Source of the DNA: Euryarchaeota archaeon RBG_16_67_27
GTDB lineage: Archaea > Thermoplasmatota > Thermoplasmata > RBG-16-68-12
Assembly: GCA_001800745.1 (NCBI GenBank)
Contig: MGVZ01000051.1
Coordinates: 1-48,960, forward strand
Length of the DNA stretch: 48,960 bases
Direction: 5' to 3'
Shown: positions 1 to 48,235 of the stretch, piece by piece
Position numbering within the stretch: the first letter of the stretch is position 1
Layout: the number at the start of each line of letters is the position of its first letter
The notes under the pieces: generated by a model
What the model was told of the DNA's origin: nothing
What the model saw: the letters and a program-made list of their open reading frames with translations, nothing else
The model's database searches: none
Made by a program: the position numbers and the translations under genes

Positions 1-1427
1 GGGTGGGCGAGGATGTTGACGTGGGGGTTCTCGACGGCCGCGACGATTCGCGCGGTCTGCTCCTTCTCCGGGAGCGTGAATTTCGAGTGCACGGCGGCAA
101 TCGCGAAGTCGAACTCCCGCAGGACCTCGTCCGGGTAGTCCATCGCGCCCCCGTAGAGGATATCGCACTCCGTACCGAGGAGGACCGCGAACCCGTCGAG
201 CTCGCGGTTGAGCGCCCGCACGCGGTCCCGTCGCTCGAGCGCCTTGTCCGCAGTCAGGCCGAACGCGACGGTCGCGGAGACGGAGTGGTCGGAGATCCCT
301 ACGTATCCGTACCCAAGGCGCCTCGCGGCATCGACCATGGTCTCGATCGGCTCCGTGCCGTCCGTCGCATCCGTGTGAACGTGGAACTCCCCGCGGATGT
401 CCCGGCCCTCGAGGAGCTGCGGGAGCCCGCCGGCGAGCGCGGCGTCGACCTCGCCCGAGTCCTCCCGGAGTTCCGGCGGGATCCACGGGAGGCCGAGCGC
501 CGCGTACACCTCCTCCTCCGTCGCCCCCGCGATCCGAGCCTCACCCCGGAACACGCCGTACTCGTTGAGCTTCATCCCCCGGCGCTCCGCCATGGCCCGC
601 AGGAGGATGTTGTGGTCCTTCGATCCCGTGAAGTACTGGAGGCCGGCACCCCACGACTCCGGCTTCAGGACCTGGAGGTCGACCTGGAACATCCGGGACC
701 GGTCGTCGACGTACCCGACGTACTCCACCAGGACGGAGGACTTCACCTCCCCCTCCGCGAGGACCTCCCGCACCCCGGGCGCGGACGTGAACGCGGCGAC
801 GACCGCCTTCGGGTCCGACGTCGTCACGAGGATGTCCACGTCGCCGACCGTCTCCCGCATCCGGCGGAAGCTCCCGACGGGCTCCACCCGGTCCAGCGGA
901 GCGGCGGACCGGAGATGGGCGATGAACCGGTCCACGAGCGCCGCGGCGTCCCACAGGAGCGCCCGGGTCATCCCCTGGCGATGGAGCTCGATCGCCCGGA
1001 GGATGTTCTCCTCCGTCTTCTCCCCGAACCCCTTGACCCGACGGAGCCGGCGCTGGCGCGCCGCCGCCTCGAGGTCCTCCAAGGTCGTGATCCCGAGATC
1101 CTGCCACAGGAGCCGGACCTTCTTCGGCCCGACCCCGCGGATCGCGAGGAGGTCGAGCACGCCGGGAGGGAACTTCGTCCGCAGCTCCTCGTGGACGCCG
1201 ATGCGACCCGTCGCGACGAACTCCGCGATCTTCTCGGAAAGCGCGGGGCCGATCCCCGCGACCTCCCCGAGGCGCCCCGCGCGGACGAGTGCCTCGACGT
1301 CCCCCGTGAGGGACTCGATCTGTCGGGCCGCGCGCGCGTACGAGATCACGCGGAACCGGTCCTCCCCGAGGATGTCGAGCATGTCCGCGATCTCCCCGAA
1401 GAGCCGCGCGATCTCGGCGTTCGTCAC
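1..1427 (-). CDS. polX: Family X DNA polymerase with C-terminal PHP phosphoesterase domain (3' end of gene runs off the left edge)
   Basis: Absent from the ORF track because it has no stop in the window. Minus-strand reading from GTG 1427-1425 gives VTNAEIARLFGEIADMLDILGEDRFRVISYARAARQIE (helix-hairpin-helix N-terminus), then RETVGDVDILV (nucleotidyltransferase aspartates). Near coordinate 300-400 it gives EFHVHTDATDGTEPIETMVDAARRLGYGYVGISDHS (PHP motif). The + ORF 3..1460 is its antisense shadow. Confidence 0.85.
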   Translation of the reverse strand, partial: MTNAEIARLFGEIADMLDILGEDRFRVISYARAARQIESLTGDVEALVRAGRLGEVAGIGPALSEKIAEFVATGRIGVHEELRTKFPPGVLDLLAIRGVGPKKVRLLWQDLGITTLEDLEAAARQRRLRRVKGFGEKTEENILRAIELHRQGMTRALLWDAAALVDRFIAHLRSAAPLDRVEPVGSFRRMRETVGDVDILVTTSDPKAVVAAFTSAPGVREVLAEGEVKSSVLVEYVGYVDDRSRMFQVDLQVLKPESWGAGLQYFTGSKDHNILLRAMAERRGMKLNEYGVFRGEARIAGATEEEVYAALGLPWIPPELREDSGEVDAALAGGLPQLLEGRDIRGEFHVHTDATDGTEPIETMVDAARRLGYGYVGISDHSVSATVAFGLTADKALERRDRVRALNRELDGFAVLLGTECDILYGGAMDYPDEVLREFDFAIAAVHSKFTLPEKEQTARIVAAVENPHVNILAH

Positions 1428-1452
1428 GTGCGGTCGCGATGCCCACGAGCGG

Positions 1453-1534
1453 GCTTATAGTTTCGGCGCGGTCGCGCGGCCGCGGGATCGCGCGGTCATC
1501 AGCGGCGATAGTCCCGTCGCAAACCTTCTATAGG
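1453..1534. promoter_or_regulatory. Divergent promoter region with two TATA-like boxes (CTATAAGC on the - strand at 1453-1460; TTCTATAGG at 1526-1534)
   Basis: Each box is centred about 26-30 nt upstream of its start codon (GTG 1427 on -, ATG 1556 on +). This is archaeal leaderless geometry. Confidence 0.45.
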
Positions 1535-11957: not shown

Positions 11958-12491
11958 ATGCGGCTGCACCTGTGGCCGCTCCTTATCGCCTCAGGAGAGG
12001 ACGACCTCCTCCGGTCCCTTCTCTTCGGCAAGAAGCGGGACCTCGAAGAGGGCCGGTCCTACCTCCTGAAGGAGCGCAAGCCCGAGCGGGCACTCGCGCA
12101 CTTCCGGCGCGCGATCGAGCTCGGGTTCCGCCCGATGTTCATCACGCGGCAGCATCCGAACCACGTCGATCGGACGCACGCGGGGAAGGAGATCCGCGTC
12201 GTCTGGCTCTCGACGACCCTCGGGAAGGACTACGTCGATCCGCACAACCTGAACAGCCTGAGCAACCTGATCGGGAACTTCGTCTCCGACGAGGCGCGCG
12301 CGGTGATCCTCCTCGACGGGATCGAGTATCTCATGATGAGCAACGACTTCCAGCGGATCCTCCAATTCCTCGAGTACGTGAACGAGCAGGTCGCGATCCG
12401 CCGCGCGCTCCTCCTGCTCAGCCTCGATGACCGCGCGTTCGACCCGAAGCAGCTCGCGTACATCGAGCGGAACATGGTCCTGCTCGAGTGA
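11958..12491 (+). CDS. DUF835 domain protein
   Basis: This is the 3' part of the artefactual track ORF 10494..12491, starting at ATG 11958. SYLLKERKPERALAHFRRAIELGFRPMFITRQHPNHV...VWLST...DPHNLNSLSNLIGNFV...VILLDGIEYLMMSNDFQRILQFLEYVNE matches the DUF835 pattern as I remember it. Confidence 0.75.
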   Translation: MRLHLWPLLIASGEDDLLRSLLFGKKRDLEEGRSYLLKERKPERALAHFRRAIELGFRPMFITRQHPNHVDRTHAGKEIRVVWLSTTLGKDYVDPHNLNSLSNLIGNFVSDEARAVILLDGIEYLMMSNDFQRILQFLEYVNEQVAIRRALLLLSLDDRAFDPKQLAYIERNMVLLE

Positions 12492-12534
12492 GCCGACGGC
12501 TTTATGCCCGCCCCGCGCATCCGCGCGCGACCCG

Positions 12535-14316
12535 ATGTTCGAGATCCTGGATCGCGGCGGCCTCGGCCGGACAGGAACCTGGATCCGCGGTGGCCGCGAG
12601 ATCCGCACCCCGACGGTCCTGTCCGTCCACCGGCCGCATCGTGCGGCTCCCGAGTACGCGGAGGCGCTCCTCGTCGCAGAACGCACGACGGACCCGAGAC
12701 TGCAGATCCGCGTGAGCGGGAGCTTCTTCTCCGAGCGGCCGCCGGAGGACCCCGACGACCTGCCGGCGACGAAGGCCGTCCCCCTCTCCGTCGCGGACCT
12801 CGAGATCCCCACGCCGTTCCTCCTGGGGGACCTCGCGGTCGTCACGTCGGGCGCGGACTTCGCCGCCGCGGCCTCCGCGGACGCGGTCGTCCTCGCGAAC
12901 GGCCCCGAGTACCTCCGGGACCCGCGGACGTTCGTCACGACGATGGCCCGCGCCCGGGAGGCGCTCGGCCCGGTGACGCCGCTCGGGGTCTTCGGGGTCG
13001 CTGCGCCGGAGAACCTCGCTGCCCTCGTCTACGCGGGCGTGGACCTCGTGGACTCGAGCCGGATCGTCCTCGACAGCGCCCGCGGGGTGTTCCACACGCC
13101 CGACGGCGCGTACCCCGACCGCGCGGACCTCCGCGCCGCGTGCGCCTGCCCGGCGTGCGCCGGCGGCGAGGACCTCCTCGCGCACAACGAGCGCGCGCTC
13201 TACCGGGAGCTGCTCCTCGTGCGGAGCCACCTCGCCCACGGCCGGTTCCGAGAGCTCGCGGAGAAGCGGCTCGCGAACGACCCGTGGAACACCGCCGTTC
13301 TGCGGCACTTCGACCTCCGCCACCATGACCTCCTCGAGACGTACACGCCCGTGACCGGAGGCGAGATCCTCGCGTACTCCGCGTCGTCCCTCACCCGCCC
13401 CGAGGTCGTCCGGTTCCGCCACCGCGTGCGGGAGCGTTACGCGAAGCCTCCGTCCGCGAGGGTCCTCCTGCTCCTTCCGTGCTCCGCGCGCAAGCCGTAT
13501 TCCGCGAGCCGGAGCCACCGGAAGTTCCGCGAGGCGATCCTCGCCTCCGCGCGTCCCTCCGTCGTCCACGAGGTCATCGTGACGTCCCCGTTCGGGCTGA
13601 TCCCGAGGGAGCTCGAGCGATGTTATCCCGCGCGCGCGTACGACATTCCGGTGACGGGGGACTGGAGCCGGGACGAGGCCGCGGTCGTCGCGGACGACCT
13701 CCACACGTTCGTTGCCGCGAACGAGTACGACGCGGTCGTCGCGCATCTCGGGGCCGAGGCGCCGATCGTGCGGGCGGCCCTTCCCCAGGTTTTCGTCCCG
13801 TCGGAGTCCCGGCCGACATCCGACGAGGCGCTCGCCGCGCTCACGCGCACCCTCTCCGACCTCGCAGGCGCCTTCGACCGCGTCCCTGGCGCCCGGCGCT
13901 TCGCGGAGGAGATGTCGAACCTCGCGCGCTTCCAGTTCGGGGACGCGGGGCTCGCCCTCGTCGAGGGAGCGACGTTCAAGGGGCGCTTCCCCGACGTCCG
14001 CGCGATCCGCGGCGGCGTCCAGGTCGCGATGCACACGGAGCGCGGGATGTTCTCCCTGACCCTCGACGGCGGTCGCGTCCTGTCGGAACGGGACGCCTAC
14101 TGCGTCGAGATCGAGGACTTCGTCCCCAAGGGGAACGTCTTCGCGGTCGGCGTGACGGATGCCTCTAGGGAGATCCGCGTCGGGGACGAGGTTGCCGTGC
14201 GGCACGCGGGGGACGTGCGCGCGGTCGGGACCGCGCGGATGGCCTGGCGCGAGATGCTCGACGCGGACCGCGGCGAGGCGGTCCACGTGCGGCACGTCGT
14301 CCCTCCGAAGGCTTAA
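12535..14316 (+). CDS. arcS: Archaeosine synthase (TGT-like N-terminal domain, C-terminal PUA domain)
   Basis: Track ORF 12427..14316, with the start at ATG 12535 (MFEILDRGGLGRTGTW...). The zinc motif is CACPACAGGEDLLAHNERALY. Also present are LLLPCSARKPYS and a PUA-like C-terminus (VEIEDFVPKGNVFAVGVTDASREIRVGDEVAV). CTTTATGC lies about 32 nt upstream. Confidence 0.8.
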   Translation: MFEILDRGGLGRTGTWIRGGREIRTPTVLSVHRPHRAAPEYAEALLVAERTTDPRLQIRVSGSFFSERPPEDPDDLPATKAVPLSVADLEIPTPFLLGDLAVVTSGADFAAAASADAVVLANGPEYLRDPRTFVTTMARAREALGPVTPLGVFGVAAPENLAALVYAGVDLVDSSRIVLDSARGVFHTPDGAYPDRADLRAACACPACAGGEDLLAHNERALYRELLLVRSHLAHGRFRELAEKRLANDPWNTAVLRHFDLRHHDLLETYTPVTGGEILAYSASSLTRPEVVRFRHRVRERYAKPPSARVLLLLPCSARKPYSASRSHRKFREAILASARPSVVHEVIVTSPFGLIPRELERCYPARAYDIPVTGDWSRDEAAVVADDLHTFVAANEYDAVVAHLGAEAPIVRAALPQVFVPSESRPTSDEALAALTRTLSDLAGAFDRVPGARRFAEEMSNLARFQFGDAGLALVEGATFKGRFPDVRAIRGGVQVAMHTERGMFSLTLDGGRVLSERDAYCVEIEDFVPKGNVFAVGVTDASREIRVGDEVAVRHAGDVRAVGTARMAWREMLDADRGEAVHVRHVVPPKA

Positions 14317-15571: not shown

Positions 15572-15750
15572 CCCTGGTCTGACGTTTGTCGGCTCCCCAT
15601 GGAGGAGCGCGTATTTATCCGCGCCGTCCGAACGGATCCCGCGTTGACAAACCTGCGGTCGTCTCCTCCTTGCGACAGCTATAAAGCTCCCTTCCCCCAT
15701 GTCGGCCACCTGTCTGACACGCCGGTTCGTCGGCGTGCTCCAGGGATGGG

Positions 15751-18700
15751 ATGACAGGCATGGCGCTCTTCCCCGGCCTCTCGGACAAGGAAGGACGGGT
15801 TCTCGGAAAGGTCGACCGGCTCGCCCAGGCGGCGGACGCCCTCGCGCAGGCGGGGCGGATGCAACGCGCGGCGTCCGCGTGGCTCCGTGCCCTCAACCTC
15901 CTCGAGTCGAGCCGAGGATCGGCCCGGACGCGGGAGGAGGCATGGTCCGAGGCGTACGCGCGGATCGGCGGGGGCCTCTTCGCCCTCGGACAGGCGGAGT
16001 CCGCGGCGACCGCGGTCGTCCAGGCGCTCACCCTGAACCCGTCGAACGGCCGGGCGCTCGGCGTTCAAGGGGACATCCTCCTCGGCCGCGGCGGTGCCGC
16101 CGAGGCGATCCCGTACTACGACGCGGCCCTGCGCTTCGACTCCCGCGCGAAGTTCGTCTGGGAGCACAAGGGGGACGCGCACGCGGCGCTCGGTCAACGA
16201 CCGGAGGCGATTCGCGCGTACGTCCAGGTCGTGAACCTCGACCCCGACGACGTCGAGGGCTACGATCGGATCCTCGCTCTCGTGCCCCAGGACGTCGACC
16301 TGTGGGTCCGCAAGGGCGATGCCCACCGACGCCGGGAGGAGTTCAACGACGCGCACGAGGCGTACGACCGCGCGCTCCGGCTCGCGTCGGACCGCCGGGA
16401 CGCCCTCGAGGGGAAGGCGCATCTCTACCTGTCCACGAACGCGCCGGACAAGGCGCTCCGGTGTCTCGACCGCGTCCTCCAGCTCGACGGATCGGACCCG
16501 GACGCCTGGAAGCTCCGCGGGGACGTCCTCGGGGCCGCCGGGAGGACGGAGGAGGCCTTGCGCTCCTACGACGAGTCCCTCCGGATCCGCGACGGCGACG
16601 CGGCGGTCTGGACCGCGCGCGGGGAGCTCCAGCGGCGAATCCACAAGAACTTGGAGGCGCTCGCCTCGTACGACCGGGCGATCGCGGCGGCGCCGAAGGC
16701 TCCGGAGCCCCGCGTCGGACGCCTCGAAGCGCTCCGCGCGCTCGCGCGTTGGGAGGACGCGGTCCGGGAGGCGGGGAAGATCCTCGCGTCCGAGCCCCGG
16801 CACGCGCTCGCCCTGTACGCGAGGGCCCAGGCGTTCCTCGCGATGAACCGGAGGGGCGAGGCGCTCCTCGCGCTCGACGAGTTCCTCGCCGTCGAGCCGC
16901 GCTCGTACGACGGGCTGGACGCGAAGCGCCAGCTCCTCCTCGCCTCGGACCGGTGGCCCGACGTGATCGCGACGTGCGACGCGATCCTCTCGCTCCAGCC
17001 GCACAACCTCCGCGCCCTGAAGGACAGGGGCCGCGCTCTCCTTGCGCTCAGGCGAGCCGAGGACGCGTACGCGGCGTTCGACCAGGCGCTCGTGCTCCAG
17101 CCGGATGACCTCGAGGCGAAGCGCGGGCAGCGGGACGCCCTCCGGTTCTCGAAGAACCCGAAAGTGCTCCTCCGGGCGTGCGACGACATCCTCGCGCGGG
17201 ACCCCCGGGACCTCGGGACGTGGCTCGCGAAGGGCGAAGCGCACGAAGCGCTCGAGCAGCGCACGGAGGCGCTCTCCGCGTACGAGAACGGCCTCCGCCT
17301 CGATCCGCGCCACGCGGGCGCGTGGTCGAGGAAGGCCGGGCTCCTCTTCGCCCTCGAGCGCTACGAGGACGCGGTGACGGCGTACGACGCCGCGCTCGAG
17401 GCGAACCCCGCGGCCGCAGACCTCTGGCGCGAGAAGGCGCGCGCCCTCTATCGCCTCAAGGCGTACCCCGGCGCCGCAGACGCTGCGGACCGCGCGACGC
17501 GGTACGCTCCGCAGGACCGCAAGGCGTGGTACGTGTACGCGATGTCCCTCCAGGGCGCGCAGCGCCTCGAGCAGAGTGTCGCCGCGTTCGACCGCGCCCT
17601 CGCGCTCGACCCGAAGGACTCGAAGTCCTGGTTCGGAAAGGCGACGTCCCTCGAGTCCCTCAAGCGGTACGAGGAGGCGATCCCCGCGTACCACCGCACC
17701 GCTGAGCTCGAGCCCGGGTTCGCGCCCGCTTGGCTCCGCGAGGGATCGTGTCTCCTGGAGCTCCATCGGTACGAGGAGTCCCTCGCCGCGTTCGCGCGCG
17801 TGCTCGCGAAGGAGCCACGGAACGAGGACGGGGTCCGGGGCCAGGTCGACGCCCTCGAGGCGCTCGGCAAGACGACGGAGGCGTTCGAGGCGAGCGAGCG
17901 CCTCACGGCGATCGGCCCGAAGTCGTCGGAGGCGTGGGTCCGCCGGGCCCGCCTTGCGCGGGCTGCGGGCCGGGCCAAGGACGCCCTCGCGTCGATCCAC
18001 CGTGCCGCCTCCCTCGCCCCCGAGCGCGCGGACCTGCTCCGGTTCAAGCGGGAGCTCCTCATCGCCCAGGACTCGCACCGCGCCGTGATCGAGACCTGCG
18101 ACCGCCTCCTCGAGCTCGACGCGCGGGACATGGACGCCCTGCGGGAGAAAGCGGGCGCGCTCGAGCGCCTGGGGAAGGCCGACGCGGCACTCGAGGTCCT
18201 CGACCACGCGTCTCGCGTCGACCCGATGGACCGCCACACATGGAACGAGCGGGGCTCGATGCTGCTCCGCCTCGGGCGCAGGCCGGATGCCCTCGCCGCG
18301 TTCGAGCACGCGCTCTCCCTGAACCCGGGCGACCGGTTCGCGATCGCGCAGCGCGGCCGGGTCTTCTTCGAGATCGGACGCGTCGACGACGCCTTGCGAG
18401 CGTTCGAGGACGGTCTCGTCCTCGAGCACGAGAACCTCGATTTCCTGAACGGGAAGGGGATGTGCCTCGCGGCCCAGGCCCACTACGACGACGCGATGTC
18501 GTGCCTCGCTCCCGTCCTCGCGAAGGACCCGAACAACTTCGCCGCACATCGGACGAAGGGGTTCTGTCTCCTGAAGACGGACCGCGCCCCGGACGCCCTG
18601 GAGGCGCTCGAGTTCGCCGCGAAGGGCCACCCGGAGGATCCGACCCTCCTTGCCTGGACGGGGGAGACCCTCACGGCCCTCGGTCGCCCGAAGGAGGCGC

Positions 18701-20001
18701 TCGCCGCGTACGACAAGGCCGTCGCCGCGGACCCGGAGCACGAGGAGGCGTGGCGCGGGAAGGGTCTCGTCCACATCACGCTCGAGGCGTTCGGGGACGC
18801 GGCGGTCGCGTTCTCCCACGCGACCGCATCCCGGCCGGACGACAAGGCGCTCTGGTACATGCGCGGCTTCGCGGAGGAGCGCGCGGGGAACTACGAGGCC
18901 GCGGTCGAGTCGTACGATCGCGCGATCCGCCTCGACGCCCGCGACAAGGCATACTGGAACTCGAAGGGGATCGCCCTCCTCCACCTGAAGCGGAACGAGG
19001 ACGCCCTCCGATGCTTCGAGAACGCCCTCGCGCTCGACCCCGGCTACGAGGCCGCGGCGCAGGGGAAGGCGACCGCGGAAGAGCGGGCGCAGCAGGCACG
19101 GATCGAGGCGTTCGCGGAGGCGGTCGTCCGTTACGAGCGACAGATGGCCCGCCCCGCGACGCGCGAGGAGGTCTTCAAGTACTGCTCCGTGCCCCTCGAG
19201 TTCCTCGATCCCGTGATCGCGTACGTGAACGAGCCCGCGCCTCTCGTGCCCGAGCGGCTCGGTCCCGGCGACCTCCGGCGGTACGAGGCCGTGGGCGCGG
19301 CGGTCCTCTCGCGGTTCAAGGACCTCGACGAGCTCCGGCTCGCGGACGTGAGCTCGGCCCTCCCGAACGTCGACCTCGACGAGGCGCGGACGGTCTGGGG
19401 ATACCTCGATTGGGTGCGCGACGCGAATCTCGAGCCCACCGCGGAATGGCACAACGACGACCTGATCCGGCAGGCGCTCGACCTCCCGAAGGAGGAGTGG
19501 AACCTCGTCGATCTCGCGCGCGAGCTCCGCCTCGGGCCGTACGAAGCGAAGAAGCTCGAGACCTCCCTGAGGATATTCGAAGGCGGCGCGTTCCCGATCA
19601 CGACGGAAGAGCAGGCGACTCCCGCGTCGCGGAAGGCGAAGCGGAAGCATCCGAAGCCCGCGCCGGTCCCCCACGGGGAGCCGGACGCGGAGGAGGCCGA
19701 GGAGGCCGCAGATCCGGCTCGTGACGGCGCCCCCGAGCCCCACGGGCCGAAAGCGGCGATGTCCGCCGCGGTCCGATCCTCTCCCGCGAAGGGTGCGCCC
19801 GACGGGAACGGGAAGTCCTGCGATGCCCACCACGCGCCGGGCGCGCAGCGGCACGCGTGCGGCGCCTGGCTGTGCCAGGCGTGCCTCGACGGCCACGGGG
19901 AATGTCCCGGGTGTCACCTCCCGATCGTCGGCCCGAAGCCAGAGGGCCCTCGGCGGCTGAAGGACGGCGACCCCGCTTCGCGGGACTTCAGTCGCCTGTG
20001 A
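15751..20001 (+). CDS. Giant TPR-repeat protein (about 30 tandem TPRs) with a C-terminal Cys/His-rich zinc-finger-like motif
   Basis: 1416 aa. A 34-aa periodicity with the A/G/Y/P TPR signature runs from about aa 40 to 1100 (for example AWxxKGxALxxLGRxxEALxAYDxALxLDP). The C-terminal motif CDAHHAPGAQRHACGAWLCQACLDGHGECPGCH is at nt 19818-19916. The 1536-aa minus ORF 15679..20289 is its antisense shadow. Confidence 0.9.
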   Translation: MTGMALFPGLSDKEGRVLGKVDRLAQAADALAQAGRMQRAASAWLRALNLLESSRGSARTREEAWSEAYARIGGGLFALGQAESAATAVVQALTLNPSNGRALGVQGDILLGRGGAAEAIPYYDAALRFDSRAKFVWEHKGDAHAALGQRPEAIRAYVQVVNLDPDDVEGYDRILALVPQDVDLWVRKGDAHRRREEFNDAHEAYDRALRLASDRRDALEGKAHLYLSTNAPDKALRCLDRVLQLDGSDPDAWKLRGDVLGAAGRTEEALRSYDESLRIRDGDAAVWTARGELQRRIHKNLEALASYDRAIAAAPKAPEPRVGRLEALRALARWEDAVREAGKILASEPRHALALYARAQAFLAMNRRGEALLALDEFLAVEPRSYDGLDAKRQLLLASDRWPDVIATCDAILSLQPHNLRALKDRGRALLALRRAEDAYAAFDQALVLQPDDLEAKRGQRDALRFSKNPKVLLRACDDILARDPRDLGTWLAKGEAHEALEQRTEALSAYENGLRLDPRHAGAWSRKAGLLFALERYEDAVTAYDAALEANPAAADLWREKARALYRLKAYPGAADAADRATRYAPQDRKAWYVYAMSLQGAQRLEQSVAAFDRALALDPKDSKSWFGKATSLESLKRYEEAIPAYHRTAELEPGFAPAWLREGSCLLELHRYEESLAAFARVLAKEPRNEDGVRGQVDALEALGKTTEAFEASERLTAIGPKSSEAWVRRARLARAAGRAKDALASIHRAASLAPERADLLRFKRELLIAQDSHRAVIETCDRLLELDARDMDALREKAGALERLGKADAALEVLDHASRVDPMDRHTWNERGSMLLRLGRRPDALAAFEHALSLNPGDRFAIAQRGRVFFEIGRVDDALRAFEDGLVLEHENLDFLNGKGMCLAAQAHYDDAMSCLAPVLAKDPNNFAAHRTKGFCLLKTDRAPDALEALEFAAKGHPEDPTLLAWTGETLTALGRPKEALAAYDKAVAADPEHEEAWRGKGLVHITLEAFGDAAVAFSHATASRPDDKALWYMRGFAEERAGNYEAAVESYDRAIRLDARDKAYWNSKGIALLHLKRNEDALRCFENALALDPGYEAAAQGKATAEERAQQARIEAFAEAVVRYERQMARPATREEVFKYCSVPLEFLDPVIAYVNEPAPLVPERLGPGDLRRYEAVGAAVLSRFKDLDELRLADVSSALPNVDLDEARTVWGYLDWVRDANLEPTAEWHNDDLIRQALDLPKEEWNLVDLARELRLGPYEAKKLETSLRIFEGGAFPITTEEQATPASRKAKRKHPKPAPVPHGEPDAEEAEEAADPARDGAPEPHGPKAAMSAAVRSSPAKGAPDGNGKSCDAHHAPGAQRHACGAWLCQACLDGHGECPGCHLPIVGPKPEGPRRLKDGDPASRDFSRL

Positions 20002-33517: not shown

Positions 33518-34111
33518 TTAGGATTTCCCTTCCGGCGGCGGGCGGGCGCGGGCGTCGCCGAGCACCGCGAGCGCGTCCCGCGCGGACCGCAGGAGCTCGA
33601 GGGCCGCGTCCCTCTCCCTCGTCACGTACGCGAGGATCTCCGCGGTCCGGCCGCTGCGGTACAGCAGGGGCACCTTCGCGCCGCTCTCCTTGTCCGCGAA
33701 CCGGTGGAGACTGGAACCGCGGAACTCGCCGCGGTTCATGAAGACGAGAATCGGCTGGACGTCGAGCAAGGGCTTCGTGTACCAGTACCGCTTGAGCGTC
33801 GCCGCGTCCCACTCGATCAGCTGCCACTTCGTCGACCGCTCGATGACGAACGTGACGTCGAACCGGAGACGGTTCCCCACCGGCACGAAGTCCCACGTCG
33901 GCTCGAGGAGGCCTTTGTCGAGGATCGTCTGGAGGATATGCTTCTCCCCCCATTCCCACTCCGCGAGGACCTGCAGGGTGCCGATCGGCTCGAATCCGTC
34001 GCCGAGCTGCTGGTACTGGATCGACACGATGCGATCGAGCTGCGGATCGTCGCCGGTCGTCTCGATGTCGAAGTAGAAGAGGGTCAGCCGGAGCCCATCC
34101 GGCCTCCGCAA
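33518..34111 (-). CDS. RNase H-fold 3'-5' exonuclease related to the PolB exonuclease domain
   Basis: 197 aa. The ExoI motif is [10 protein letters not shown], followed by [14 protein letters not shown]. It resembles the stand-alone PolB-exo-like family, as I remember it. It sits 35 nt upstream of the acyl-CoA dehydrogenase gene on the same strand. Confidence 0.65.
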
Positions 34112-38320: not shown

Positions 38321-39345
38321 GTTCCGACGGATCAGATTGAGAGCTTGCAAGCCAATTCATTCGGCAGTCGGTTCAGACCTTCCCTTCGTGAGCACCCGCA
38401 CGTTGTGCACGATCTCCCGCGCCAGCACCTCGTTCCTACGGCTCGTCGGCCGCCGGCATCGCAGGCGGTCGCCAAACAAGCCTTTCTCCGTCGCGAACCT
38501 CGATTCCGCCGCGCTGCGTCGATGGTACCTCGCAGCCCACCGATTTGGAAACTGAAGGGCGAAACGCGTCATGCGGTCAAAGGCGTCTACCGGATGGGTC
38601 GGCCATCGTGCGTTCGCCCTCGGAGAGAAGTACGGTTGCAGACCCGCATCGTGGGCGGTTACGCAGGCGGAGCGACTCCAGTAGGCCCTGTCTCCCGTGA
38701 GGGCCTCCGCCTCGGCGTCGTCGGGAATGTCGTCCAAGAGCGGCCCGAGCTGGGTCGAGTCGTGCCGCGTGCCCCGCGTCACCCGGACCGCGAGGGTCCC
38801 GCGAGTCGCCGTCCCGGAGAGGACATGGAGCTTGGCGAAGTCCTTCCGAGCCTCGGGATCGTGCTTCGACCGCCACGCCCCGGAGCCGAAGAGGACGAGG
38901 CCGGTCGCATCGACTGCCAAGATGGTCTCGACCGCCCAGAACGGCTGGGCGGTCTCCGCGAGGAGGTTCTCCAGGGTGCGCGTGATTCCGTCGCCGCGGT
39001 TGTACTTCTGCAGCGTGTTGAAATGAGGAATGTGGCTGAGCCCGAGGACAGGTTCGAGGAGCGTGAGGAGACCGATCGTCCGCCGGAAGCTCAGGTGGAA
39101 GTACGACCGGACGAGGAGGCACAGCACGAGTTCCCGCCTCGATATCCGCGGCCGACCCCTGCGTCGCTCCCATTCGTGGATCGTGAAAGAATCCACGAGG
39201 TTCCTCAGGAAGAGGCAAGCAAGACGGACCTCCTCGCTCTGCCAGCGGTTGTACTGTCTCCAGTCCCTACGGTCGATACGCCGACGTACCTTGTTAGTGC
39301 TCTTGGCCAAGGGGGGATCCCATCCCAGGTCCGTTTGGCGGACCT
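38321..39345 (-). mobile_element. IS5-like insertion sequence (boundaries approximate)
   Basis: The transposase ORF fills 38357-39310. I could not identify terminal inverted repeats or target duplications by eye, so the ends are only bracketed by the neighbouring ORFs. Confidence 0.5.
38357..39310 (-). CDS. IS4/IS5-family DDE transposase
   Basis: 317 aa with a TTG start. The DDE context is LAVDATGL (D), LTGDRAYWS (D) and HRRSAAESRFATEKG (E within the Y-(2)-R-(3)-E-(6)-K-like motif). Confidence 0.85.
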   Translation of the reverse strand: MAKSTNKVRRRIDRRDWRQYNRWQSEEVRLACLFLRNLVDSFTIHEWERRRGRPRISRRELVLCLLVRSYFHLSFRRTIGLLTLLEPVLGLSHIPHFNTLQKYNRGDGITRTLENLLAETAQPFWAVETILAVDATGLVLFGSGAWRSKHDPEARKDFAKLHVLSGTATRGTLAVRVTRGTRHDSTQLGPLLDDIPDDAEAEALTGDRAYWSRSACVTAHDAGLQPYFSPRANARWPTHPVDAFDRMTRFALQFPNRWAARYHRRSAAESRFATEKGLFGDRLRCRRPTSRRNEVLAREIVHNVRVLTKGRSEPTAE

Positions 39346-39757
39346 GGCTGTGGAACTCGTGGACCTGGCCTTGAACGGCTACCCCGCTCTGGACTTGTCA
39401 ACGGTCACCGCTGACGAGGAGTTTGTGTGCACGCCCGGGAACCGAGCCCACGACGCCCTATTGTCCGGTTACCGGACGGTCTTTCAACGAATGGGGCTGA
39501 CGGAGAACGTTGACTTCTTCATCAACAAAGGGATACGGTTCGCGGACAACCCCAGCAAGATCGTGCGCGGTTCGGGAAGGCCAGACATCCTGCTGCGATT
39601 GGTAGGTCCCCAAACAGGAGAGGGAATCGGCATCGCGCTAGAAATCAAGTCGCAACTTACAAGGGCAGGGCGATACGCAGACCAACTCCTCGACTATGAA
39701 AGAGCGTTGATGAGAGCAGGATACGGTTCATATGGAGTCCGCGTTATCCTCTACTAA
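39335..39757 (+). CDS. PD-(D/E)xK nuclease-fold protein fragment (~140 aa), possibly 5'-truncated by the IS
   Basis: This is the 3' end of track ORF 38345..39757; the rest of that ORF is antisense to the transposase. Candidate starts are TTG 39335, GTG 39350 and GTG 39359. The motif GSGRPDILLRLVGPQTGEGIGIALEIKSQ reads as D...E-x-K, followed by YADQLLDYERALMRAGY. Confidence 0.5.
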   Translation: MADLAVELVDLALNGYPALDLSTVTADEEFVCTPGNRAHDALLSGYRTVFQRMGLTENVDFFINKGIRFADNPSKIVRGSGRPDILLRLVGPQTGEGIGIALEIKSQLTRAGRYADQLLDYERALMRAGYGSYGVRVILY

Positions 39758-40604
39758 CCGATCGACGAGGCGACCCTTTGACGAGGTTAGGTTCGTAGGC
39801 TTGAGCTTCATACTGGACGGACAGAAGGGATGGCAGGCTCTTGCATCTGCCCTCCACTCTGCCCTGCAGCCACTCAACTCATGGCCGACTATGCAAATTA
39901 GCCTACGTCTTGCCACCGAGAAGCCAGGCAGGACAGAGGAGCGAAAGTTTCATGCCCAATCCCAGCGGAATGCAGTGGAGGAAGCCATTCGCGAGGTCGC
40001 TGAAGGCCGTGTGATCTCGCTGCGTGCGCGAACCCATCGCGGGGAATGGGAATCCTCTCGCAAGGGCCATTGGCTGTGGTGTGGACCCGGCAGCCCGTTT
40101 GACGCGGGCTGGATTGACCCTGAGGTTAGTCTTCTACTGACCTTTCCATGTCATCTCTTCGATGCCGGCAGCCCAGCAGGCGTCGAGAGCGTTGGGAGAC
40201 TCGTGACAGAAATCGCAGACCGCATGCCTTTCGTATATGGCTATGGGAACCTCGGGCGATGGGACAATCACCCGGGCACCCATGGAATCGACCGTCTCTA
40301 CGCGGAAACGGCCCATGCGATTCCGGTATCGGCATTTGATGATTACATTGGGAGTAGTCGCCGTCGAGAATACCGCCACGGAGTGAAAGGGGCTTTCTGG
40401 CTCAACATCCTGAACTCCTACCACGTCGAAGCTCTTGGCGGGGTCGAACGATTTCGATTGAAGGCTCAACCCTACGAGATTGATCAGTTAGCCCACGGCG
40501 GAATCATGGTTCTCGTGACACCTTCTCCACTCGTCCAACATACAACAGAGAATCGCCAGGCTTTCGCGCGTCTCTTCAAGGCGCTCGAGCCTGTTTTCGG
40601 CTAG
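39732..40604 (+). CDS. Hypothetical protein (290 aa), a possible immunity-type partner of the nuclease fragment
   Basis: It overlaps the upstream stop by 26 nt. The C-terminal half (GVKGAFWLNILNSYHVEALGGVERFRLKAQPYEIDQLAHGGIMVLVTPSPL...AFARLFKALEPVF) reminds me of the DUF3396/Imm52-type immunity signature. This is a recollection only. Confidence 0.55.
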   Translation: MESALSSTNRSTRRPFDEVRFVGLSFILDGQKGWQALASALHSALQPLNSWPTMQISLRLATEKPGRTEERKFHAQSQRNAVEEAIREVAEGRVISLRARTHRGEWESSRKGHWLWCGPGSPFDAGWIDPEVSLLLTFPCHLFDAGSPAGVESVGRLVTEIADRMPFVYGYGNLGRWDNHPGTHGIDRLYAETAHAIPVSAFDDYIGSSRRREYRHGVKGAFWLNILNSYHVEALGGVERFRLKAQPYEIDQLAHGGIMVLVTPSPLVQHTTENRQAFARLFKALEPVFG

Positions 40605-40908
40605 GATGTGAGCGACGCCGAAGATGACAGATGTTCTTGGCCGAATACCGCCGAACGAGAACACCTCGCATCCTTGTGCGATTTCCGCAAACTATTCCTC
40701 TATTGCCTCCATATTGGTGCCGGCATGCTTTCTTCGAACTGGGTTTCGTCGTGCCCTAACTCACTGGAGGACTTCCTCCAAGAAGACTCCCCCGATGTGG
40801 AAGGGTCCATCGCCGCAAGCCGACGCAAGTGCCATTTCATTCTCGCTCAAGCAACCTATCGCTGGGTCCGACGCACGATTTTCGTTCGCTTCGACTGGGA
40901 CTGTAACT

Positions 40909-42285
40909 ATGGCGATTGTCAGCTCGGACCAGTTAGATCAGCTCGCCTCGAAGACGGACAGGGTCCTCGGGACGATGTTCGCGTACGACGCGAACGGTAA
41001 CCTCGACACGACGTCGGCGGGTTGGGACTACGACTGGAACGTCGAGAACCTCATGACCGTCGCGAAGCTGAACGGCGGGCAGCAGCATGCCTACACGTAC
41101 GACGGCTTCGGCCGGCGGGTCGAGACGGTCGAGGGGGCCGCGGGGTCGGGCGCGTGGGCCGTGTCGATCACTTCCGGCTTGGACGCAATCTACGAGAAGG
41201 ATCAGGCAGGCGCGATCACGAAGTACGTCTACGCGAACGGGATGCGGATCGCGAAGATCAATCCGGACGCCACGGTCCACTACTTCCTCGGGGACCACTT
41301 CGGATCGACGCTGCAGGTCCGGAAGGCGGACCGGAGCCTCGTCTTCTCCGCGGAGTACGATCCCTTCGGGAGGCCATATTCAGTCACGGGCACCGAAGCG
41401 TACAAGTTCTCGGGCGAACGAACTGACGATCCTACCGGCCTAACCTACTTCCGTGATCGTCAATACGATCCGGACCTGGGGCGACTCGTCTCGACTGACC
41501 GCACCCTTGGCGCCCCGATGAGCCCTCAGACCACAAATCAGTATTCATACGTCACGAACAACCCGTTGACTTATGAAATCGGCCAGTCGAGTTCGTCGGC
41601 CTTGGTCCTCAAGGCCGCGGGTGGAGGGTTCCTCGGGGGCACGCTGTCGCTTTACTTAATGGGCGCTTATGAACGCCCGGTGCCGCTCGGAAAGTACACA
41701 ATGTACGGCTATTCGTACTGGAAATTCTGGGAGGGCCCTACGGGTTGGCGGGAGTCACACGTGAAGTTCCAAATCGCGAGAGGCGGAGATGCGCTTTGGA
41801 AGTTTGATTACGGACCGCACAGCGGCGGGCGCGTGCCGAAGGGATGGCATGCTCACACACCCAAGGGCTTCATTGACCCCTATCCTGCTTGGAAAGGAAG
41901 GGCTTTCGAATGGGTCGGAAAGTGGGGAGGCAAGGCCGCAAAAGGATTGGTGGGCCTAGCTGCGGCCATAGACGCCTATCGTCTGTACGGGGCCATCGAG
42001 TACGCGAGACAGACGGGGGATTGGAGCGCCGTCGGGACGGAAGCCGCCGTCATCGCCGGAGGTTGGGCGGGTGCTTTCGCAGGCGCGTACATAGGAATGA
42101 TCGCCTGCGCCCCCGCAGGGCCAATTGGAGTGGGGGTGTGCGGAGTCGCTGGAGGGATTATCGGTGGGATCCTAGGGGAAGAGGCGGTAGAGGCTCTCGT
42201 GAATACCCCTCCGGAGGCACTGATCGGGGCGTGTGCACCGCCGTTGATCTGGCTTGGATGCCACGATCAGAGAGAGGTATGGTGA
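40909..42285 (+). CDS. RHS-repeat-associated core fragment fused to a glycine-zipper C-terminal domain (N-terminally truncated polymorphic toxin)
   Basis: Track ORF 40624..42285. Its first 95 aa are not protein-like, so ATG 40909 is preferred. YD repeats are FAYDANGNL, YTYDGFGRRV and YVYANGMRIA. The core end is HYFLGDHFGST...YDPFGR...FSGERTDDPTGLTYFRDRQYDPDLGRLVSTD...NQYSYVTNNPLTYE. The C-terminus is AGGWAGAFAGAYIGMIACAPAGPIGVGVCGVAGGIIGGILG. Confidence 0.8.
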   Translation: MAIVSSDQLDQLASKTDRVLGTMFAYDANGNLDTTSAGWDYDWNVENLMTVAKLNGGQQHAYTYDGFGRRVETVEGAAGSGAWAVSITSGLDAIYEKDQAGAITKYVYANGMRIAKINPDATVHYFLGDHFGSTLQVRKADRSLVFSAEYDPFGRPYSVTGTEAYKFSGERTDDPTGLTYFRDRQYDPDLGRLVSTDRTLGAPMSPQTTNQYSYVTNNPLTYEIGQSSSSALVLKAAGGGFLGGTLSLYLMGAYERPVPLGKYTMYGYSYWKFWEGPTGWRESHVKFQIARGGDALWKFDYGPHSGGRVPKGWHAHTPKGFIDPYPAWKGRAFEWVGKWGGKAAKGLVGLAAAIDAYRLYGAIEYARQTGDWSAVGTEAAVIAGGWAGAFAGAYIGMIACAPAGPIGVGVCGVAGGIIGGILGEEAVEALVNTPPEALIGACAPPLIWLGCHDQREVW

Positions 42286-42298
42286 GGGACGGACGCAA

Positions 42299-42961
42299 AT
42301 GACCGTCGGTGAGGGACGCGAGGTCCAGCTCGTTCGAGCCCTAGAGCGACTGCACCCGAATTTCCGACAGCCGCTTCAGGAAATCAATGCCCGTGTCTAC
42401 GATTTGTCCCTCTCAGGCGAGCCATCCGTCCAGCTGATGAACCGAATGTATGTGTCGTTCCTGCACTCGCTATGCGGCTCTGAGTACCAGGTTTTTGTCC
42501 ATCACATTGTCCCGGGCATGAAAGGCGAGGCCCTCGCCGACCTGGTGCGACGTCTGGAACGTTTGGAGCCTTCGACTCAACTTACGGTCCTCAGTAAGCA
42601 GGACGTAAGGCGGATGGGGTTCCGCGCTCGAGGTGCGCCCTACAGAGAACTGACCTTGGCCACGCGCACTCGGGAAACGCTCGAGATCCTGTTCGAATAC
42701 GGTTACATGTATATCGGTTTCGAGGAGTGGCTCTTGGGCCGTGTGGACTCAGCGTTTCCGCTAGAATTCTTACGTCGGACCTGTTTTGAAAGAGAGGTGA
42801 CAGCCTTGTTGCAGTCGGCGGTACGCGATTTCCCGGCGACCATCCAGATCCGCGAATTCCACGGACCTCTAGTCGCAACGACGTATCTCTCCGAGGAGCG
42901 CGTATTCAGTGCGGCGAACCAAACCGCTTCCGAACTTGGCTACATTTTGCGTGTGGAATAG
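42299..42961 (+). CDS. Hypothetical protein (220 aa), putative cognate immunity protein of the RHS-CT
   Basis: Track ORF 42254..42961. ATG 42299 lies 13 nt after the RHS stop. I recognise no motif, so the assignment rests on position only. Confidence 0.5.
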   Translation: MTVGEGREVQLVRALERLHPNFRQPLQEINARVYDLSLSGEPSVQLMNRMYVSFLHSLCGSEYQVFVHHIVPGMKGEALADLVRRLERLEPSTQLTVLSKQDVRRMGFRARGAPYRELTLATRTRETLEILFEYGYMYIGFEEWLLGRVDSAFPLEFLRRTCFEREVTALLQSAVRDFPATIQIREFHGPLVATTYLSEERVFSAANQTASELGYILRVE

Positions 42962-43047
42962 ACCGCTGGACAGAGCGACGAATTCTCTCCATGTCTTCTA
43001 ACAGTCGAGCTACGAGATGATAATCGGTTCACCAACCGTCCATATTT

Positions 43048-44040
43048 TTGGGCAGCTTGAGCGCCTGCAGATGCCACCGCCAAAACCAAGACCCTTCAAG
43101 GGATTCCCTCGACGTGGCGCGAAGACGCGGAAAAGTGGAAGTTCCCGCCCCCCTTGACGAGCTAAGTGCGTCCGACCTTCGTTTCCTATGTGGCATGTAT
43201 CGAATCTCGAGAGGCGGCAGCAAAGAGGACCTCATCCAGAGGCTCATTACCTCCGGCTACCCGGTTCCTGATATTCTGCTGCGGGCGCGAGAGATTCAGC
43301 TCGGCGATCACATCGCTCCCTATCTGCACAGAGATGATCTTCAGGACCGACTGGAGGAAGCCAGTCTACCCGTCAGCGGTTCCAGGCGGGAACAGATACT
43401 TCGGCTCATTGAGAACCGGTTGCTCGACCCGAGAGCGATTCTAGGTGACCTCCCTCCTAGGAGCCTTACCGACGTCTACCATTCCATGTTCGGTAGAGTT
43501 CCGACAGTTTCCAAGGAACGCGCAGTTGAGGAAATTCTCACTTCGTCGGGTCTCGTCTCAGAGAAGCCCGCGGCTCGCACATGGGAAGGGGGCGGCGGTA
43601 CCGCCTCCCAGTTCGAACACGACATCGCCTTGTCGTTCGCGGGGGAGGACCGAAAAGTGGCCAGAGACATCCATGCGAGGCTCCATCAGGCTGGGGTCCG
43701 TGTCTTCATGGACGAATTCTACCAGCCCGAACTGTGGGGAAAGAAACTGTCGGAGGAGTTCCGTAAACGATACGGACCCAGCTCTCGATTCGTCATCCCT
43801 CTCATCTCCCGCCACTACGCAGTCAAGGACTGGACAGACTTCGAGTTCACTATCGCTCGGGAGGAGGCTCTCCGTCGCACGCAAGAATTCATACTGCCAG
43901 TTCGCCTCGACGACACAGTCCTGGTCGGGCTCCGGAGTGATATCGCCTATCTTGACTTCCAGCGCGAGGGAGTAGACGGAATCGTCTCGACGGTTTTGAA
44001 GAAGCTCGGTGCTTCGGCTGATTTTCGTACACCTGGCTGA
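43048..44040 (+). CDS. SAP-SAP(-SAP-like)-TIR domain protein
   Basis: 330 aa from TTG 43048; GTG 43114 and 43135 are alternative starts downstream of the TATA-like CATATTTTTG at 43041-43050. SAP motifs are LSASDLRFLCGMYRISRGGSKEDLIQRLI and LHRDDLQDRLEEASLPVSGSRREQILRLI. The TIR region is FEHDIALSFAGEDRKVARDIHARLHQAGVRVFMDEF...RFVIPLISRHYAVKDWTDFEFTIA...ILPVRLDD. Confidence 0.8.
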   Translation: MGSLSACRCHRQNQDPSRDSLDVARRRGKVEVPAPLDELSASDLRFLCGMYRISRGGSKEDLIQRLITSGYPVPDILLRAREIQLGDHIAPYLHRDDLQDRLEEASLPVSGSRREQILRLIENRLLDPRAILGDLPPRSLTDVYHSMFGRVPTVSKERAVEEILTSSGLVSEKPAARTWEGGGGTASQFEHDIALSFAGEDRKVARDIHARLHQAGVRVFMDEFYQPELWGKKLSEEFRKRYGPSSRFVIPLISRHYAVKDWTDFEFTIAREEALRRTQEFILPVRLDDTVLVGLRSDIAYLDFQREGVDGIVSTVLKKLGASADFRTPG

Positions 44041-47596: not shown

Positions 47597-47686
47597 CGTC
47601 CCACGTTCGAACCGTGATACTGTCGGCCAAGCCTTGATATGCCCCCTGCCATACTATCGGGCGCGAGAATAAGTCGGGGACTCTTC

Positions 47687-48235
47687 ATGGACACCGACGT
47701 GAAGACCTACAAGCTAAAGATTTGCCTCGTCGGCGAGGAGGGCGTCGGGAAGACGAGCCTCGTCCACCGCTTCGTTTCCGGCGCGTTCGACGAATCGTAC
47801 ATCCGGACCCTCGGCGCGGTCGTCTCGAAGAAGTCGGTCACCCTCGGCTCCGTGCGGGGACGGCCGGTCCATGTCGACATGATGATCCTCGACATCATGG
47901 GGAAGCGAACGTTCCTCCAGCTCTTCAAGGACGCATACTTCAACGGCGCGAAAGGCATCATCGCAGTGTTCGACGTGACGCGGAAGCCGTCCCTCCGTGA
48001 TCTCACCCTATGGGTGGACGGGGTCCGGGACAGCGTCGGGCCCGTCCCCGCGTACGCGCTCGGGAACAAGGTCGACCTCAAGGAACGTCGTGAGGTGAAG
48101 GACGAGGACGTGCGCGAGGTCCTCGCGTCGTACGAGTGCCCGGTCCTCTACACCTCCGCGAAGACGGGGGAGAACGTCGAGCAGGCGTTCCAGGGTCTCG
48201 CGAAGACGATCATCGAGTCCCTCGTCACCGAGTGA
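47687..48235 (+). CDS. Ras-superfamily (Rab-like) small GTPase, second copy
   Basis: Track ORF 47639..48235, with the start at ATG 47687, about 30 nt downstream of CATACTATC. G1 is GEEGVGKTS, the switch I Thr is in YIRTLGA, G3 is ILDIMGKR, G4 is GNKVDL and G5 is TSAKTGENVEQAF. Confidence 0.85.
   Translation: MDTDVKTYKLKICLVGEEGVGKTSLVHRFVSGAFDESYIRTLGAVVSKKSVTLGSVRGRPVHVDMMILDIMGKRTFLQLFKDAYFNGAKGIIAVFDVTRKPSLRDLTLWVDGVRDSVGPVPAYALGNKVDLKERREVKDEDVREVLASYECPVLYTSAKTGENVEQAFQGLAKTIIESLVTE

Follow-up and report, generated by a model that had tools for sequence, protein, structure and literature searches.

The stretch of DNA analysed here (hereafter the window) comprises 48,960 nucleotides of contig MGVZ01000051.1 of Euryarchaeota archaeon RBG_16_67_27, and the subject of this work is a gene on its plus strand that encodes a protein with a SAP-like N-terminal module and a C-terminal TIR domain. 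An initial annotation had placed the gene at 43048-44040 and had described its product as a stand-alone SAP-SAP-TIR protein, a candidate single-gene defence effector sensing DNA and cleaving NAD. An open reading frame (ORF) with these limits was found: the open-frame listing contains a maximal ORF of 330 amino acids (aa), which starts with TTG and spans 43048-44040. The likelier coding sequence is 43114-44040, which starts with an in-frame GTG and encodes 308 aa, because a public protein of identical sequence (P0001, 308 aa) was called from this GTG, and because in the family alignment the starts of the orthologs fall at the position of the GTG or later. The AT-rich sequence CATATTTTTG (43041-43050, plus strand), which lies 64-73 nucleotides (nt) upstream of the GTG, can be read as a candidate archaeal TATA-like element. 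It overlaps the TTG at 43048, and if it is a promoter element, it argues for the downstream start. Both numberings are used below; the number of a residue in the 308-aa form is that in the 330-aa form minus 22. All features of the protein are encoded on the plus strand.

The C-terminal half of the protein is a TIR domain, as had been proposed. Residues 193-306 of the 330-aa form (43624-43965) matched the Pfam family TIR_2 (PF13676) with an E-value of 1.2e-16 and a score of 61.7 bits, the curated cut-off being 28, and the domain is of the bacterial AbTir/BtTir/TcpB type. In the AlphaFold2 (AF2) model of the full-length protein, which was computed with a 37-sequence family alignment as input and had a mean predicted local distance difference test (pLDDT) score of 81, this part is a beta-alpha-beta structure with the elements E-H-E-H-H-E-H...H. 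The predicted fold superposes on solved bacterial TIRs. In a Foldseek search of the PDB the best matches of the TIR part, all at a probability of 1.00, were PdTIR (3h16), BtpA/TcpB (4lqc/4c7m/4lzp), BtTir (7uxr) and AbTir (7uxu/8g83); the BtTir superposition had a root mean square deviation (rmsd) of 2.6 Å and a template-modelling (TM) score of 0.73, and SARM1, SPARTA, TIR-STING and plant TIRs were among the lower-ranked matches. A phmmer search of the PDB sequences likewise ranked BtTir (7uxr) and AbTir (8g83/7uwg) at the top.

The assignment of Glu266 to the W-x3-E position of catalytic TIRs was also borne out. This residue (Glu244 in 308-aa numbering) is encoded by the GAG codon at 43843-43845, and in the phmmer alignment it pairs with the Glu of the AbTir motif KDWTNYE (7uwg/8g83), which by residue count is E208 if residue 134 of 7uwg is taken to be preceded by a tag of three residues. 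The position is invariant in all 37 aligned family members. Further signatures of the family TIR are SFAGED, LWGK and EFILPVRLD; in the full-length alignment S-x-A-x-ED, WG and EFILPVRLD are likewise invariant. The role of the conserved TIR Glu has been described (PMC7075850). Judged by profile, alignment and predicted fold, the domain belongs with the catalytic TIRs of the bacterial type, among which it is unremarkable, and it is probably NAD-cleaving. With the bacterial TIR NADases the window protein shares the catalytic Glu, the S-x-A/x-ED motif of strand A and the layout of a single chain that is first helical and then TIR. It differs from them in its N-terminus, since theirs are coiled coils or unrelated sequences and not SAP-like units; the sequence identity is only 20-25%, and the LWGK motif in the BB-loop is the window family's own. 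Several of the bacterial enzymes have been studied as virulence factors of pathogens, not as defence genes.

The N-terminal part (residues 11-144 of the 308-aa form; 43144-43545) was modelled as an all-helical module of three helix-loop-helix units and a long connecting helix, in the order helix-loop-helix, long helix, helix-loop-helix, short helix, helix-loop-helix. The pLDDT of the N-module was above 90 within the full-length model, and 89, with a predicted TM score of 0.82, when it was modelled alone. A Gly-rich linker modelled with low confidence (43564-43605; pLDDT below 50) and apparently disordered connects it to the TIR domain. Unit 1 (residues 37-67 of the 330-aa form; 43156-43248) is a SAP motif: the whole protein matched Pfam SAP (PF02037) with 29.1 bits (cut-off 23.9; E=7e-7) at exactly these residues, which carry the score, and unit 1 searched by itself gave an E-value of 5e-5. 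Unit 2 (residues 96-122 of the 330-aa form; 43333-43413) is SAP-like; searched by itself, it scored below the cut-off (14.8 bits, E=0.022), and the position aligned with it, which does reach the threshold in orthologs, is the one where P0005 and P0016 have their best SAP match. Unit 3 (residues 137-166 of the 330-aa form; 43456-43545) is a helix-loop-helix of the model, which gave no SAP profile match when searched alone. Of the two clear SAP motifs and the degenerate one listed in the initial annotation, the first was thus confirmed, the second is below threshold in this protein and the third is seen in the predicted structure only; as a description of the family the wording is fair. The loops of the three units each keep a basic residue at the corresponding place (K37, R91, which is always basic, and R128, basic in 95%; 308-aa numbering), and in unit 2 of the family alignment G89 is invariant and position 91 is either Arg or Lys.

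No structural homolog of the whole N-module was found by Foldseek in the PDB or BFVD at E<=1e-3. Locally, the module resembled the SAP domain of Tho1 (rmsd 1.2 Å over 37 columns, 35% identity, probability 0.90), that of PIAS1 (probability 0.69), DEK and many viral SAP domain proteins (probability 0.9-0.98), these being matches with non-significant E-values for the whole-module query. When the PDB sequences were searched with the family profile of the N-module, the SAP domain of human DEK was matched with an E-value of 5.7e-4, and Ku70, FAN1 and Tho1 more weakly. What the module shares with the eukaryotic SAP domains (DEK, Ku70, PIAS1, Tho1, FAN1, SAF-A) is the helix-extended loop-helix and the G-x-K/R signature of the loop. 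In contrast to them, it consists of three units and a long helix in one rigid domain of about 135 aa, it occurs in an archaeal setting, and it is fused to effectors of the death type and not to chromatin or repair proteins. The architecture of two modules, one SAP-like and one TIR, is real.

A word-indexed search returned 363 proteins that match the window protein. At least 45 or so of the 120 listed clusters (90% identity) span 82-98% of the query with 31-76% identity, and the remaining listed clusters match the TIR only, with 50-65% identity. On these alignments the protein is a member of a conserved family and not a one-off fusion. The closest orthologs come as short forms of 274-310 aa, to which the window copy belongs and which are common and conserved (P0003, P0010, P0021-P0035), and as long forms of 433-546 aa. 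In the long forms the TIR is followed by one of two unrelated extensions, one of about 130 aa with a weak match to DUF1883 and one of about 200 aa without a match (ortholog sets P0002/P0004/P0006-P0009 and P0005/P0012/P0014/P0016/P0018). Remnants of neither type were found by tblastn downstream of the stop codon of the window gene. Among 185,579 species representatives there was a single full-length member, in a metagenome-assembled genome (MAG) of the Methanomassiliicoccales (L001), and the TIR alone matched at 447 places across bacteria and archaea. A Bacteroidales locus (L037) considered as holding a bacterial full-length member proved to be a TIR-only match, the N-terminus of the protein being unrelated. 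In the relatives that share only the TIR (P0039-P0120) this domain is fused to HEAT, VWA, CDC48_N, acylphosphatase, HD-CE, AbiTii and other domains; the clade of TIRs that carry EFILPVRLD is an unusually conserved and widely shuffled effector cassette of bacteria and archaea.

The N-module was also found in other contexts. A search of 1.84 billion representative proteins with its profile yielded 270 proteins at E<=1e-3, 62 of them at E<=1e-10. About 40 of the listed matches align to the whole N-module, which is located at their N-terminus, and many of these lack a TIR of the window type. The module was followed by TIRs of other clades, with ThsB_TIR and CAP12/Pycsar-TIR matches (P0143, P0156, P0159), by a nucleoside-2-deoxyribosyltransferase-like (NDT-like) domain with the motif NPNVFYEVG (P0131, P0141, P0147, P0153, P0161, P0183), by a Schlafen AlbA_2 (SLFN_AlbA_2) domain (P0148), by two hydrophobic segments of the kind seen in two-helix membrane tails (P0129, P0137, P0142, P0145) or by no recognisable domain (P0123). 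The one NDT-like member that was scanned, P0141, matched the PADLOC profile 'Effector (TIR)' with an E-value of 3e-9; the contigs carrying P0129 and P0141 were too short to inform on context. Weaker matches were proteins with multiple SAP repeats, which align to single units only. A constant N-module that precedes interchangeable effectors, predicted to cleave NAD, to cleave nucleotides or to act on membranes, is typical of the logic of single-protein conflict systems.

To see whether the protein stands alone, its neighbours were scanned with PADLOC and Pfam. Within about 10 kb around the gene in the window no ThsA/SLOG, CD-NTase, Argonaute/APAZ, STING, STAND or reverse transcriptase (RT) gene was found, in agreement with the claim that the partners of described TIR systems are missing. 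That claim was strengthened by an all-versus-all blastp comparison covering, at ten loci from different lineages, every ORF that is 70 aa or longer and lies no more than 5 kb from the gene. No conserved partner gene emerged from it; the only proteins shared were the TIR protein itself, its alternative-frame echoes, a transposase and a GTPase. At the loci of the relative P0104 (L089-L092) a gene for a 435-aa defence-type SIR2 protein (L089 8591-9898) precedes the SAP-TIR gene on the same strand at a distance of 100 nt, in an ORFan-rich island with an integrase at its border. Other loci contained an NsnB/AriA-like ATPase, HNH and DpnI_C genes together with an MmeI-like restriction-modification enzyme, SLFN_AlbA_2 and PIN proteins, HicAB or a transposase. 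The gene was part of a housekeeping operon at none of the loci examined; the homologs, for which uniform embedding in such operons had been named as a counter-indication, were seen in variable or mobile settings, and the loci fit variable or defence regions. In the Methanomassiliicoccales MAG (L085 7199-8227) a Schlafen AlbA_2 protein is encoded immediately upstream of the SAP-TIR gene; in P0148, as mentioned, a domain of this type is fused to the N-module directly.

The window is archaeal, since it encodes an archaeosine synthase alpha subunit (ArcS; 12382-14313, plus strand) that scores above the NCBIfam equivalog cut-off. This agrees with the archaeal host given in the initial annotation, and the contigs of relatives carry genes for TBP, L35Ae, TiaS, prefoldin and diphthamide synthase. 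The location of the gene at the edge of a low-G+C island was likewise recovered: the G+C content is 0.56-0.61 at about 38-44 kb and about 0.69 outside, and it recovers straight after the TIR gene. The island contains, from left to right, a DDE_Tnp_1 transposase (38360-39397, minus strand), an ORF tail without family match (39230-39754), a TsiV-type immunity gene recognised by Pfam (39732-40604), a short RHS-core protein (40624-42285), which ends in a glycine-zipper region and gave a weak match to pore-forming colicins, and an unannotated ORF of 220-235 aa without family match (42254-42961). The ORF tail had been considered as a remnant of a VRR-NUC-type toxin, for which neither Pfam nor PADLOC gave support. 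The ORF at 42254-42961 is probably the immunity gene of the RHS-core protein; as a partner of the TIR protein it was rejected, as it matches no family and is absent from the other family loci. No convincing direct or inverted repeats flank the region 36.5-44.4 kb, and the sole tRNA gene is distant, at 15.2 kb. Downstream of the TIR gene, thiolase, DUF35 and Ras-like GTPase genes follow with a host-like G+C content. Upstream of the TIR gene the island (38360-42961) is an array of toxin and immunity parts with a transposase, and the toxin/immunity cassettes and insertion sequence of the initial annotation were thus recovered. In an archaeon, the mere presence of RHS cassettes is unusual.

The protein was then compared with known TIR systems. 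Of the PADLOC profiles, the candidate single-gene system PDC-S66 matched best (E=6e-11; orthologs down to 5e-14), and its TIR, C-terminal as here, is of the same clade. Only this TIR is aligned (from profile position 136 or 144 to 240, of 282), and the N-terminal half bears no relation to the SAP-like module. PDC-S66 itself is an uncharacterised prediction, named in two papers that appear to be strain-genomics studies. With SPARTA, whose TIRs were among the structural matches, the protein may share a logic in which an invading nucleic acid leads to oligomerisation and thereby to an active TIR NADase. SPARTA senses through a guide-loaded Argonaute and APAZ, both absent here, whereas the window protein would bind its ligand directly; profiles of Argonaute-associated systems matched the TIR part only (Aga_TIR-PNTD1-PNTD2, E=1.2e-5 and 0.0072; Aga_REase-TIR-PNTD1-PNTD2, E=0.02). 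The retron-type RT-TIR profile NF042941 scored 36.4 bits, the cut-off being 600, and was matched at its TIR positions 339-437 only. Of the features that mark TIR-effector types of CBASS and Pycsar, PADLOC and Pfam detected no SAVED, STING or cyclic nucleotide monophosphate (cNMP)-binding domain and no cyclase gene. The protein also fell outside the definitions of Thoeris, SPARTA, PDC-S66 and the RHS/polymorphic-toxin cassettes.

Taking these observations together, we favour the reading that the gene encodes a self-contained conflict system, antiviral or anti-plasmid, in one polypeptide, which the archaeon acquired on a low-G+C island; we would put the probability of this reading at about 0.55. 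The C-terminal TIR domain would be the effector, an NAD+-cleaving enzyme of the AbTir/BtTir type, and the N-module, with its three SAP-like units packed in one compact domain, would be the sensing or targeting part. In the uninfected cell the protein would be monomeric or otherwise inactive. The N-module would then bind a cue of the invader, most plausibly a nucleic acid or nucleoprotein, and several copies would become aligned side by side on the bound scaffold. Their TIRs would form head-to-tail arrays that create composite active sites, NAD+ would be destroyed or turned into an isomer of cyclic ADP-ribose, and growth of the infected cell would cease. It is between neighbouring TIRs that composite active sites arise in AbTir filaments, in SARM1 and in SPARTA tetramers. 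We infer the ligand, the activation by clustering, the NADase chemistry and the protective phenotype; activation by clustering is proposed because it is the established behaviour of TIRs in other systems. A precedent for a nucleic acid that scaffolds a TIR assembly is the plant L7 TIR (7x5l, 7vu8), which was among the structural matches. In that case it is reportedly the TIR that makes the contact with the nucleic acid, working as a 2',3'-cNMP synthetase, whereas in the window protein the candidate binder is the separate N-module.

The defence reading is strengthened by the fusion of the N-module to other types of effector and by the defence and mobile genes next to relatives. A reasonable prior for it is provided by a screen of TIR candidates from E. 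coli, 37.5% of those tested having conferred defence against phage (PMC11350192). As to the interpretation in the initial annotation, its architecture, the Glu, the solitary status, the host and the context held, and DNA sensing, NADase activity and defence are proposals; the protein is no one-off fusion, given the approximately 45 listed clusters that cover most of the query. A wider proposal is more tentative, and we regard it as possible rather than probable: the three-unit SAP-like module may be an unrecognised sensor of invaders, possibly of their nucleic acid, that defines a family of abortive-infection systems, each made of one protein and found chiefly in Thermoplasmatota-type archaea, in which it is wired to TIR, NDT-like, membrane-tail or Schlafen-type effectors.

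Several observations weigh against a self-contained nucleic-acid-triggered system. The N-module is not basic overall, its median net charge being 0.5, and in several orthologs it is acidic (pI 4.6-5.4); in the window protein unit 1 is the sole significant SAP match. Nucleic acid is proposed as the cue because of the SAP similarity and the conserved basic residues of the loops, but with a net charge of about zero and a single significant SAP match its binding is weakly grounded, and we take it for the weakest step of the proposed mechanism. The confidence of the TIR model is moderate (pLDDT 59-93). The closest orthologs (67-76% identity, 433-506 aa) often bear an extra C-terminal domain; if this extension is the true sensor, the window copy may have been reduced or may have lost its activity. 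The association with defence islands was judged by eye on the ten loci, and at several of them, L093 and L095 included, the only neighbours are unannotated.

Among the alternatives to a one-protein system, the one that survives best is a division of labour as in Thoeris, in which the TIR, like that of ThsB, makes a messenger of the cyclic ADP-ribose type for an effector encoded elsewhere or adjacent. AbTir and BtTir reportedly make cyclic ADP-ribose isomers, which can be counted in its favour, as can the defence-type SIR2 gene that adjoins the P0104 gene and a weak match to the PADLOC profile of ThsB (E=0.0055). The likeness to Thoeris lies in this SIR2 neighbour and in the use of a TIR protein in the sensing of infection. 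We nevertheless consider the alternative unlikely. The SIR2 gene is absent at L086, where the TIR protein is 70% identical, and at the other eight loci, so that the two cannot be taken for a Thoeris-like pair; neither a SLOG nor a Macro receptor domain was detected in the P0104-adjacent SIR2 protein; a ThsA-like gene is missing from the window and, ThsA being absent there as well, from nine of the ten loci; and ThsB has no SAP-like module. In addition, the same N-module is found on membrane tails and on SLFN domains, that is, on terminal effectors and not on makers of signals.

Slightly less credible is the possibility that the N-module is an adaptor which, like an effector-associated domain, docks the TIR or other effectors onto a separate sensor protein by protein-protein contacts and does not itself sense DNA. 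That one module heads many different effector domains would suit such a role, and so would the neutral to acidic charge of the module in many members and a faint, non-significant likeness, in Foldseek, to assemblies of death-effector domains. A SAP fold can bind protein, as a passage of PMC13171448 states for the SAP domain of SLX4, which binds MUS81. Against this, no protein with the full module and an NTPase or other sensor was found near any of the ten loci, and the long proteins in the profile search match single SAP units and not the whole module.

It is improbable, in our view, that the protein has a non-immune role on nucleic acids, such as the removal of NAD caps from RNA by a TIR that the SAP-like module tethers, or the work of a nucleoid-associated, NAD-linked regulator. 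The idea derives from TIR proteins of bacteria and one archaeon that, as a passage of PMC10937652 reports, remove nicotinamide from NAD-capped RNA, and from the SAP domains of SAF-A and Tho1, which according to abstracts bind nucleic acids. A maintenance function does not agree with the distribution of the family, which is patchy (a single full-length member among the species representatives), nor with the position of the gene, in a low-G+C island next to an insertion sequence in the window and in variable regions, never in conserved operons, in the relatives. Furthermore, the exchange of the TIR for a membrane tail suits killing better than RNA maintenance.

We give still less weight to the idea that the TIR is a non-catalytic scaffold, or the window copy an inactive remnant shorn of a C-terminal domain. 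Many TIRs do act as scaffolds, and the closest orthologs, as mentioned, often carry at 433-506 aa one of the two unrelated extensions. The short forms are, however, common and conserved throughout the family, the ORF of the window is intact, with the Glu and every family-invariant residue kept, and neither extension has left a trace downstream. Finally, the gene directly follows the RHS-core protein and the ORF taken for its immunity gene, and a TsiV-type immunity gene belongs to the same array, but that it is an orphan NADase toxin of this RHS/polymorphic-toxin array, delivered to competitors or used against them and paired with a nearby immunity gene, is highly improbable, as the protein contains no RHS, YD or pre-toxin sequence and no detectable signal or trafficking domain, its full-length architecture is kept at nine other loci without RHS genes, and the upstream ORF of 220-235 aa is not found beside other family members.

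The fusion had been put forward as a defence architecture that has not been characterised, and the literature searched is in line with this. The terms 'SAP-TIR' and 'TIR-SAP' were used in no paper found, none combined a SAP domain, a TIR domain, archaea and defence, and SAP is mentioned neither in a 2020 survey of TIR proteins (PMC7075850) nor in the 2024 E. coli TIR screen (PMC11350192). What is new here is therefore, as a candidate, a reusable SAP-like sensor module on an archaeal single-gene TIR defence protein; TIR effectors of this kind were already known.

If the one-protein defence reading is correct, SAP, which is known mainly as a chromatin-tethering motif of eukaryotes, would be placed in the role of a prokaryotic immune sensor. 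TIR immunity has been well mapped in bacteria, plants and animals and hardly in archaea, and in few TIR systems is it understood how the sensor works. The protein is a tractable candidate in this respect, with 308 aa and a small, rigid and confidently modelled putative sensor domain that occurs before at least five types of effector. It would then offer a minimal model of a ligand-switched TIR NADase, and the module would be a new sensor entry for PADLOC and DefenseFinder. Even if the defence reading fails, what is left is a family of archaeal genes, conserved but without annotation, that moves with mobile islands.

Some further features were observed in the window and at one of the related loci. 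A small GTPase of the Ras/Roc type is encoded at 47639-48235, 3.6 kb downstream of the TIR gene, and three genes for Ras/Roc GTPases (L095 7687-10671) lie within 9 kb of the SAP-TIR gene of P0018. This proximity could point to a functional link or be a coincidence in a lineage where small GTPases abound. Between the acyl-CoA dehydrogenase and succinate dehydrogenase genes there is a small ORF resembling DEDDh-type exonucleases (33518-34111, minus strand), which gave a marginal match to the CRISPR-associated DEDDh profile of PADLOC (E=7e-4). A PolX-type DNA polymerase with a PHP domain (3-1454, minus strand) runs off the left end of the window, and the region 15718-19998 (plus strand) encodes a protein of 1427 aa that consists almost entirely of TPR repeats.

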